From: Candidatus Woesearchaeota archaeon | GTDB taxonomy: Archaea; Nanobdellota; Nanobdellia; Woesearchaeales; JACPBV01 | Length of the DNA stretch: 64,000 nucleotides | Reading direction: 5' to 3' | Assembly (NCBI GenBank): GCA_016180135.1 | Contig: JACPBV010000023.1 | Span: forward strand, 7,405 to 71,404 | Shown here: one piece after another, positions 25,177-26,757 of the stretch | How positions within the stretch are numbered: position 1 is the stretch's first letter | How the letters are laid out: every line of letters starts with the position of its first letter | Notes under the pieces: model-generated | Database searches by the model: none | Seen by the model: only the letters and a program-made list of their open reading frames with translations | Told to the model about the DNA's origin: nothing | Made by a program: the position numbers and the translations under genes

Positions 25177-26757
25177 TTAAAATCTTTCGCCCTTAAGAAT
25201 CTCCTGTATAGAAATTAACTTTTCCTTACCATCTGCCATATTCCTCAGTTTTACCTTGCCAACCTTCATCTCTTCTTCCCCGATAAAAATCACATAAGGG
25301 ATACCCAAAGAATTCGCATAATTGAGATTCTTGGAAACGCCCCTTCCCATAATATCAATTTCAGTCCTGACACCAGCCGCCCTCAGCTCATTTGCAGCCT
25401 TCAACGATTCCTTTAAAGTTCCGATAGGGATGACAAAAACTTTTGTGACTGTCTTTTTGGCAGCCATTCCGGGCGCCCTTGCGATGACCGCATCATAAAG
25501 CCTGTCCAGCCCAAAGGAAGTTCCGACTGCAGGATATTTCCCTTTGCCCGATTCTCCCTTTCCTGATTCTCCTTTGCCTAATTCTTCTTTTCCTGACACT
25601 CCATTCCCTGAATCTCCTTTCCCAAAATCTCCCTTTCCTGAATCTCCTTTCCCTGAAACTCCATTCTCTGAAACTCCTTTTCCCGATTCTCCTTTCCCTG
25701 AATCTCCTCTTCCAAGAAACTGCCCAATCATATTATCCCATCTTCCTCCGGAGCAGACAGACGAAGTTATAGCGCTCCCTTTGATAAAAGTCTCATAGAT
25801 AGTTCCGGTGTAGTAAGCAAGCCCTCTTGCCAATGATGGGTCGAAAGAAACCGAAACAGAGATGGAATCTAACAAGTCCAGCAAACTTTCTATCTCTTTC
25901 AATCCTTCAATATCGCCGATGACAGATTTAAGCGCCAGGATCTTTTCAGCATTTTCTCCCTGGATCCCGATCGTCCCAAGAATCTTCGAGGCCATATCAT
26001 CGCTGAGGCCTTTCCCAATCAATTCTTTGATAACCGCATCCTTCCCAAACTTCTCCAGCTTATCGAGGGAAAGCATCACCGTTTCTGTTTTCTCAGCCTC
26101 AACACCTGCCCAGATCATGATTGCATCAAGGATTTTCCTGTTATTGACTTTGATCTCAGAGTCAAAGCCAAGCTTTTGCAGCGCCGCTTTCATTATCGAC
26201 AGGATTTCGGCATCTGCCGTCATCTCTTTGCTCCCGACAGCATCAACATCGTCATACCGTAATGCAAGTTCCCTGTTTCCCTGATCCCTGAACGTAAAAG
26301 TTTCTTTGAGAATCTCTGCTCCGCCGGCATATTTAGATGAAAGGACATCAAATCTCTCAATCACCGGAGTCTCTAATGGGGAATAGCCGTAGAGCTCAAA
26401 CGTTTCCTTTAGCGTGTCAATTATCTGCTGCCTGACAATCTGGCTTTCCGGCAAAAAGTCTCTGGTTCCACGGGCTCTTTGGAGCTCTCCCTTGATTTCT
26501 TTTTCAATTGCCTGCTGAACTTCTTGCTTAACTATCTGAACTTCTTCTTTAGCTTTCTGAACTTCTGGAGAAATAGGTTGCAAAATATCTGGTTTTACGA
26601 TGGCTGTTTTTTCATCAACTCTGCCGCCAACCACCATCTTCCTGACTGCATCTCTGATTGCTTCAGAAACAGAGCTATAAATCTGCCTGTCAACAAGCTT
26701 CTGGATTTCATCGATTAGGCCTTTTGTGAGCCGTATTTGGAGTGTGTCCATTACCAT
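25177..26757 (-). CDS. hisS: Histidine-tRNA ligase with N-terminal RHH fusion, a GxSGK insert and an apparent motif-2 deletion
   Basis: ARGTRDFLP, ETPVIE, LALRYD, LARGLAYYTG, GGRWDNMIG, AVGTSFGLDRL and anticodon-binding domain. Confidence 0.92.
   Translation of the reverse strand: MVMDTLQIRLTKGLIDEIQKLVDRQIYSSVSEAIRDAVRKMVVGGRVDEKTAIVKPDILQPISPEVQKAKEEVQIVKQEVQQAIEKEIKGELQRARGTRDFLPESQIVRQQIIDTLKETFELYGYSPLETPVIERFDVLSSKYAGGAEILKETFTFRDQGNRELALRYDDVDAVGSKEMTADAEILSIMKAALQKLGFDSEIKVNNRKILDAIMIWAGVEAEKTETVMLSLDKLEKFGKDAVIKELIGKGLSDDMASKILGTIGIQGENAEKILALKSVIGDIEGLKEIESLLDLLDSISVSVSFDPSLARGLAYYTGTIYETFIKGSAITSSVCSGGRWDNMIGQFLGRGDSGKGESGKGVSENGVSGKGDSGKGDFGKGDSGNGVSGKEELGKGESGKGESGKGKYPAVGTSFGLDRLYDAVIARAPGMAAKKTVTKVFVIPIGTLKESLKAANELRAAGVRTEIDIMGRGVSKNLNYANSLGIPYVIFIGEEEMKVGKVKLRNMADGKEKLISIQEILKGERF
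25543..25707 (-). repeat. In-frame 15-bp repeat x11 encoding G[DEV]SG[KN]
   Basis: Degenerate pentapeptide units inside hisS between GQFLGR and GKYPAVG. Confidence 0.9.

Follow-up and report, generated by a model that had tools for sequence, protein, structure and literature searches.

The window analyzed here, a 64,000-nucleotide (nt) stretch of a Candidatus Woesearchaeota genome, carries on its minus strand an open reading frame (ORF) that joins an N-terminal ribbon-helix-helix (RHH) DNA-binding domain to a histidyl-tRNA synthetase (HisRS, encoded by hisS; Table 1). The initial annotation had claimed that the two parts run in one frame without an intervening stop, and this was borne out, as all 526 codons are open with zero internal stops and Pfam domains were found on both parts. 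We found the fusion to be conserved among relatives, in several families of small groundwater archaea, and to be accompanied, in its own promoter, by three short boxes that form a candidate operator. The reading that we favor, and hold to be reasonably probable, is that of a bifunctional synthetase that represses itself by blocking its own leaderless promoter.

The N-terminal domain was assigned by profile searches. Against the full protein, Pfam RHH_1 (PF01402, CopG family) scored 24.8 bits on residues 6-40, above its gathering cut-off of 20.5 bits, while the first 45 amino acids (aa) searched by themselves reached 30.4 bits and the relatives scored 24.4-27.2 bits. Across 21 loci, 18 columns of the domain were invariant. 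With NikR RHH domains (2wvd and 1q5v; E ~1e-3) as the best solved relatives of the domain profile and with the RHH_1 match, the label "CopG/NikR-type" given earlier is a fair one. In AlphaFold2 (AF2) monomer models, the two helices of the domain were predicted at a confidence (predicted local distance difference test, pLDDT) of 63-82, with residues 1-11 unstructured. A charged linker follows the domain, as had been proposed, and HisRS begins near the expected motif, with RARGTRD at residue 94. In relatives, the linker varies in length between 25 and 50 aa; its counterpart in stand-alone RHH homologs is, by alignment, the C-terminal tail helix. The motif 1 region, motif 3 (GGRWD, of the GGRYD type), and the HGTP domain of HisRS are all present in the window protein.

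Table 1. Features of the fusion gene, its promoter, and its downstream neighbors, in window coordinates.
Feature	Position	Strand	Details
RHH-HisRS fusion ORF (P0001)	25177..26757	-	526 aa
RHH DNA-binding domain, residues 1-45	26623..26757	-	Pfam RHH_1; beta-strand TLQIRLT; helices 12-23 and 30-43
Charged, partly helical linker, residues 46-93	26479..26622	-	
HisRS catalytic domain, N-terminal part to LRYD169	26251..26478	-	RGTRD, motif 1 region
In-frame 132-nt deletion junction	26250..26251	-	44 aa removed (LTVP...GRYRQFVQC), including class II motif 2
Remaining catalytic domain	25702..26250	-	HisRS insertion domain and motif 3 (GGRWD)
In-frame 15-nt tandem repeat	25541..25713	-	11.5 copies; (G-K-G-D/E-S)n insert, ~52 aa
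HGTP anticodon-binding domain, residues 439-522	25192..25443	-	Pfam PF03129, 63.4 bits
TATA box TTTAAATA	26784..26791	-	26 nt before ATG; preceded by a BRE-like (TFB-recognition element-like) purine-rich stretch (agaaacc)
Candidate operator box 1, CAATTAC	26770..26776	-	Core ATTAC
Candidate operator box 2, CAATCAC	26759..26765	-	Core ATCAC; 11 bp from box 1
Candidate operator box 3, GTAATGG, inverted	26748..26754	-	In codons 2-4 (M-V-M-D); 11 bp from box 2
VapB-type antitoxin gene directly downstream of hisS	24894-25151		Pfam VAPB_antitox, 38.9 bits
PIN fragment downstream of hisS	24492-24737		21.6 bits

Distribution of the fusion and its two enzyme cores

Using the RHH profile on 401 genomes drawn evenly from the order Woesearchaeales, we recovered the fusion in 27-29 of them, including all sampled members of six families (f1, f26, f130, f99, f51, and f133). 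Whole-genome searches likewise returned open frames of ~480-545 aa with the RHH domain in frame, in all sampled members of the family to which the window belongs and in several others, and the fusion was found at 20 named public loci in metagenome-assembled genomes (MAGs). The homologs are labeled Candidatus Woesearchaeota or Nanoarchaeota, which places the MAG of the window among the DPANN archaea, and their NCBI protein name reads merely "histidine--tRNA ligase". According to the initial annotation, absence of the fusion from all relatives would speak against it; relatives carry it. The notion that assembly or gene calling had run two genes into one, to which we give next to no probability and for which we found no evidence, is ruled out, as more than 25 assemblies, independent and from different studies, show the same in-frame architecture. 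The fusion is genuine and old, and not an assembly artifact.

The same module sits on two kinds of enzyme. The type A core, to which the window protein belongs, reads FRDGP...GRYRQF, with all type A fusions grouped in a single clade (support 99/97) inside the non-fused type A enzymes; the type B core reads WRYERPQxGRLREF. Between the two types, core identity is 26-37%, compared to 53-98% for the RHH domains, as in the loci L010 and L064, where the RHH domains are 98% and the cores 33% identical, and the break in identity falls exactly at the first HisRS residues. This pattern in the alignments indicates either that a new core came to stand beneath the promoter-operator-RHH-linker module, which was retained, or that the module moved onto a second hisS. 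In both cases, selection would have kept the combination of module and HisRS. Apart from these two types, a 474-aa metagenomic protein (P0024) showed a type A HisRS with a different N-terminal extension of ~55 aa (MKLIRKISKGSRFNQIYLPRDVEGLGAGDVVEIKL...); its likeness to MazE/AbrB (E 0.07) stayed below the cut-off and is not counted as a finding.

A three-box candidate operator

At all of the 22 or more distinct fusion loci, we observed one promoter layout or a variant of it: a BRE/TATA element, ~8 nt, (G/C)CATTAC, N4, (G/C)CATTAC, N, and ATG-GTAATG(G/C). The three boxes thus run direct, direct, inverted, with centers 11 base pairs (bp) apart, and occupy the stretch between the TATA box and codon 4. 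As box 3 falls inside codons 2-4, the N-terminus MVM is invariant. In all but three of the fusion loci, box 3 reads GTAATG in codons 2-3. The codon for Val2 was GTA in 22 of 22 loci, while GTA makes up 32% of the codons at other valines, and each of two further invariant valines is encoded by three codons. Departures from the standard layout were seen as variants in L069, in the genomes G063 and G174, and in G200. In G063 and G174, the boxes run direct, inverted, inverted. In G200 (L165, contig C226), the protein starts with MMQT and there is no coding GTAATG, but three direct CATTAC boxes lie upstream in 11-bp phase, with a ~16-nt spacer before the ATG; the third direct box upstream may compensate for the lost coding one.

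The position of the boxes fits that of a repressor site. The distance from TATA to ATG at the fusion loci is 24-26 nt, similar to that at 36 non-fused hisS promoters, and this spacing points to a leaderless or near-leaderless transcript, which would put boxes 1 and 2 in the interval from the TATA box to the transcription start. This stretch is the classic site of archaeal repressors. Among these 36 promoters, none was found to have the box pair itself. A 20-nt signature that runs from box 2 to codon 5 occurred exactly once in 41 of the 401 genomes, compared to 0 matches for the reversed control, and all signature matches that we fetched proved to be fusions or stand-alone RHH genes of the same family. 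Upon searching the 18 fusion genomes, we found box pairs with 0-1 mismatch almost only at hisS; pairs with two mismatches (134 vs. 56 in the reversed control) are not interpretable. Within the genome of the window (G000), the full three-box pattern is unique. At one locus (L133), the hisS operator is preceded 86 bp upstream by a second cluster of three boxes, ACATTACgtaaGCATTACgatAGTAATGC (G022:C1, ~91090-91107), which may be an auxiliary operator or the remains of a duplication. A further operator candidate, the inverted repeat AAAGGTT-N6-AACCTTT at 26789-26808, was dropped, as it is not conserved in G001.

Boxes 2 and 3 are inverted relative to each other and flank the first ATG, as would be expected if the boxes acted as RNA or translation-initiation signals, for example through a hairpin of box 2 with box 3 over the start codon, with the RHH domain serving dimerization or tRNA binding. 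We consider this very unlikely, since the repeat formed by boxes 1 and 2 is direct, all three boxes of G200 are direct with none inverted, and the TATA-ATG spacing places boxes 1 and 2 upstream of where the transcript starts. Furthermore, RHH domains read DNA, with related ones binding near-identical boxes, and an Rfam scan of 24400-27300 gave no relevant match.

Besides the fusions, the signature led to small genes that carry the module without an enzyme. Sixteen of the 20 fetched matches outside known fusions were stand-alone RHH genes of 80-89 aa (in G308, cut to 62 aa), with the start and the boxes as in the fusions and with a helical tail (GDSVKEVREIRKKLSKE...) alignable to the linker of the fusions. 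In 14 of the 16, the RHH gene is overlapped by a convergent PIN gene; this tail-to-tail arrangement with a 3' overlap (e.g., L142, 307-549(+) and 544-975(-), and 13 further loci among L141-L159) is unusual and conserved. Close stand-alone copies were missing from the fusion genomes, G000 included, with the exception of G051, which holds both a fusion (L163, C65) and a stand-alone gene (L147, C55). In the stand-alone copy of G051, both the boxes (TACTAC, TATTAC, ATGACAATG) and the beta-strand (MTMAVTQVRLP) are changed, and this copy looks as if it had diverged to avoid cross-talk. Stand-alone RHH proteins of ~100 aa, up to 61% identical, were also seen in Bathyarchaeia MAGs (L073-L075), with GTAATG, ATTAC, and GCATTAC around the TATA box; from these sequences, the pairing of protein and box appears to be conserved well beyond Woesearchaeales. 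A representative-library search with the RHH profile was unusable for counts, its top three matches being repeat-protein artifacts and most others fragments. Another metagenomic protein, P0207 (337 aa), joins the same RHH family (MQTVQIRLTKEL...) to a calcineurin-like metallophosphoesterase, and hence at least one enzyme besides HisRS has acquired this RHH module.

Proposed autoregulation and comparable systems

The reading of a self-repressing synthetase can be put as a chain of steps. A complete small RHH repressor module, comprising the promoter, the three-box operator, the RHH domain, and a tail-derived linker, would have been joined in frame to HisRS. As HisRS is an obligate dimer, its two N-terminal RHH halves would pair into one DNA-reading beta-ribbon, and several such RHH dimers would sit on the three boxes along a single face of the DNA. 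Since the boxes cover the TATA-to-start region of a leaderless transcript, the bound protein would block the recruitment of transcription factor B (TFB) and RNA polymerase, with negative autoregulation of the HisRS level as the outcome. More speculatively, tRNA-His or substrates competing for the enzyme body could modulate the repression. The initial annotation had proposed a synthetase that regulates transcription: the conserved candidate operator in the gene's own promoter speaks for this part of the proposal, whereas the window's allele is probably an inactive enzyme and no regulon beyond the gene itself was visible in the pattern search of G000, in the 18 fusion genomes, or in the promoter test described below.

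Several points weigh against autoregulation. An AF2 model of residues 1-146 reached a mean pLDDT of only 53.6 and had no beta-strand, although the missing strand is expected of a monomer model. Three bulky HisRS dimers bound 11 bp apart may clash sterically. Both the transcription start and the leaderless mRNA are deduced from nothing but the TATA-ATG spacing. Shared ancestry of the loci could account for part of the promoter conservation, although protein identity drops to 35-37% across the N-terminal region that was aligned. Finally, because the window's own allele is defective, the function of the fusion in this particular genome is uncertain.

An alternative is that the fused RHH domain works mainly in trans on other genes, in place of a stand-alone regulator like CdrS or aCcr1, with HisRS as a dimerization scaffold or sensor and autoregulation as an inherited by-product. 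We judge this to be improbable. In its favor, stand-alone homologs with the same boxes occur in many non-fusion genomes, the signature is present once per genome, and G000 is without a close stand-alone paralog. In the same direction, CdrS of Haloarchaea (NF058555) is the best named NCBIfam profile, and the box resembles that of aCcr1 from Sulfolobales, which binds AGTATTA(C) boxes between TATA and start codon and blocks formation of the pre-initiation complex (PMC9976878, PMC9976892); the aCcr1-box differs from GCATTAC at 1 of 7 positions. The profile scores, however, are far below their cut-offs, with CdrS at 26.6 bits for the window protein and 33.6 bits for the relative P0004 (cut-off 100) and the aCcr1 family (NF053762) at 13.6 bits for a stand-alone homolog (cut-off 60). 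We thus did not accept orthology to CdrS or aCcr1 and keep the likeness as a resemblance only; these are stand-alone cell-cycle regulators of 55-60 aa that have regulons, and none is fused to an enzyme. Moreover, CATTAC showed no enrichment among 403 leaderless-type promoters of G000 (6 occurrences vs. a mean of 8.6 for permuted hexamers), and the near-exact box pairs in the fusion genomes cluster at hisS. A further point against this alternative is that the two forms coexist in G051.

In G000, we found nine two-box matches, roughly what chance would give by estimate. Two sites were seen there that may be chance occurrences: ATTACGATTCAATCAC at C24:56164-56179, which adjoins a TATA-like box upstream of a methyltransferase gene, and CCATTAC-N14-GTAATGG on the minus strand of C10, before a 161-aa PIN-like ORF. 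HisG was not found in the genome of the window, so that "histidine status", suggested earlier as a possible input, would have no pathway to act on. A further possibility, which we also regard as improbable, is that the fusion, in the lineages that have it, is the sole copy in the cell of a pan-archaeal CdrS/aCcr1-like RHH regulator and senses tRNA-His charging, feeding translation capacity into its own transcription and possibly into single-box targets such as division genes. Uncharged tRNA-His or substrates on the synthetase body would then release or reshape the RHH ribbon. Were this true, the fusion would be an archaeal, DNA-level analog of GCN2 or T-box logic, and the allele in the window, which lacks motif 2, would be a naturally arisen separation-of-function variant in which the regulator alone is retained.

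Functionally, the fusion has parallels among known proteins. Moonlighting is known among aminoacyl-tRNA synthetases (aaRSs), a few of which act as repressors of their own genes: in E. coli, AlaRS (transcriptionally) and ThrRS (through a translational operator) repress their own synthesis through binding to the respective gene or mRNA. These, however, use the synthetase body itself, without an appended canonical DNA-binding domain. BirA of E. coli, the biotin protein ligase and repressor of the bio operon, is an adenylate-forming enzyme with a class II aaRS-like fold and an N-terminal DNA-binding domain; it represses as a dimer and thus resembles the fusion in joining an N-terminal repressor domain to a class II-like catalytic fold. 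Yet BirA uses a winged helix-turn-helix (wHTH), controls a biosynthetic operon, and is no tRNA synthetase, while here the domain is RHH, the enzyme HisRS, and the only visible target its own gene. PutA (proline utilization A) carries an N-terminal RHH domain on a large dimeric enzyme and autoregulates the put promoter; it differs in being a bacterial dehydrogenase with a redox- and membrane-driven switch, in contrast to an aaRS. NikR, the closest solved RHH protein by sequence, likewise has its RHH domain fused to a C-terminal oligomerizing and ligand-binding domain, but the fusion described here has no nickel-binding ACT-like domain, only the RHH part aligns, and NikR models scored at most 21.6 bits, far below their cut-offs. 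RbkR, an archaeal fusion of riboflavin kinase with a wHTH regulator whose conserved operators were found by comparative genomics (PMC5397151), differs in fold and pathway and controls a biosynthesis and transport regulon. An assignment as a type II antitoxin of the RHH VapB/ParD type was rejected, as the RHH domain continues in frame into HisRS and the vapC remnant downstream has its own antitoxin.

The fusion, as a bifunctional enzyme-repressor, belongs to none of the BirA, PutA, NikR, RbkR, or AlaRS/ThrRS families, and in full-text literature searches we found no report of an RHH-HisRS protein, nor of an aaRS with a canonical sequence-specific DNA-binding domain and a conserved cis operator. 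The comparative evidence is unusually clean, in that the operator is strictly associated with the domain, the boxes are phased at 11 bp, a box was relocated, and the module was kept through replacement of the core. The hypothesis of autoregulation is directly testable with recombinant protein and 60 bp of DNA, and it offers a route into the transcription regulation of uncultivated DPANN archaea. CATTAC is a likely recognition code of small archaeal RHH regulators that belong to a widespread family.

The altered window copy and its neighbors

The HisRS part is not canonical, and the initial annotation had missed two defects in it. The first is that 44 aa including motif 2 are gone between D169 and D170. 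Upon alignment to solved HisRS structures, LRYD169 passes directly to D170-VDAVGS, skipping residues 131-174 of human HisRS, and PF13393 (tRNA-synt_His) matches in two separate stretches with profile positions 70-118 skipped. All relatives hold the segment (LRYD-LTVPxARVIGMNPxLKMPFKRYQIGxVFRDGPxxLGRYRQFxQC-DVD), including a genome of the same genus that is 94% identical. Class II motif 2 (fRxE/D...GRxREFxQ) is the strand-loop-strand that binds ATP and the acceptor end. The second lesion is the ~52-aa repeat insert, placed after motif 3 between GGRWD...FLGRG and YPAVG; it was absent from every relative whose sequence covers the site, and no other such 15-nt repeat occurs in the genome. In AF2 models, pLDDT dropped to 24-34 around the deletion and 25-37 in the repeat, compared to 80-95 in the insertion and anticodon domains and 77-95 for residues 180-320. 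The window protein scored 272.9 bits against NCBIfam hisS (TIGR00442), below the equivalog cut-off of 286.75, while the intact relative P0004, a 500-aa protein from JACPII010000043.1, passed at 381.7 bits.

With motif 2 gone and the hisS cut-off failed, the window's allele is probably catalytically dead as a synthetase; binding to DNA and to tRNA anticodon arms has probably survived, but not aminoacylation. The gene evolves under purifying selection, with a dN/dS of 0.12 both against the same-genus and against a same-family ortholog, and hence the damage is recent. The assembly, 88% complete, contains no second HisRS of either type and encodes the missing 44-aa peptide nowhere else, whereas a tRNA-His(GTG) gene is present.

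These lesions could mean that the gene is a recently inactivated allele, that is, a nascent pseudogene or an assembled strain variant, with a working hisS in unassembled DNA or in other cells of the population; charging and regulation by this protein would then alike be of no consequence in this genome. We consider this unlikely, though less so than the other alternatives weighed above. Both changes are unique to this genome, and the failed equivalog cut-off, the low model confidence around the deletion, and the incomplete assembly all point toward inactivation. Against it, neither change shifts the frame, nothing is broken in the ORF, the RHH domain, the boxes, or the anticodon domain, dN/dS is low, and the assembly offers neither another HisRS nor a copy of the missing segment. 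A collapse by the assembler at the deletion is unlikely, since the microhomology at the junction, of an ATG type, is only ~3 nt. Catalytically inactive relatives of HisRS are used in regulation elsewhere, as in HisZ and the HisRS-like domain of GCN2, and the window's allele is like these in probably lacking activity. It differs from HisZ in its score (122.5 bits against a hisZ cut-off of 271.65), in having the anticodon domain, and in the absence of HisG, and from both in that the loss of motif 2 is recent and the protein is not an ancient paralog.

Directly downstream of hisS, the VapB-type antitoxin gene and the PIN fragment (24492-25151) make up what, from their sequences, is a degraded vapBC cassette. 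On the other side and divergent from hisS, 26962-28229 encodes a 327-aa ATPase-like protein and a 95-aa protein with overlapping starts and stops, located between hisS and dxr (28242-29426).

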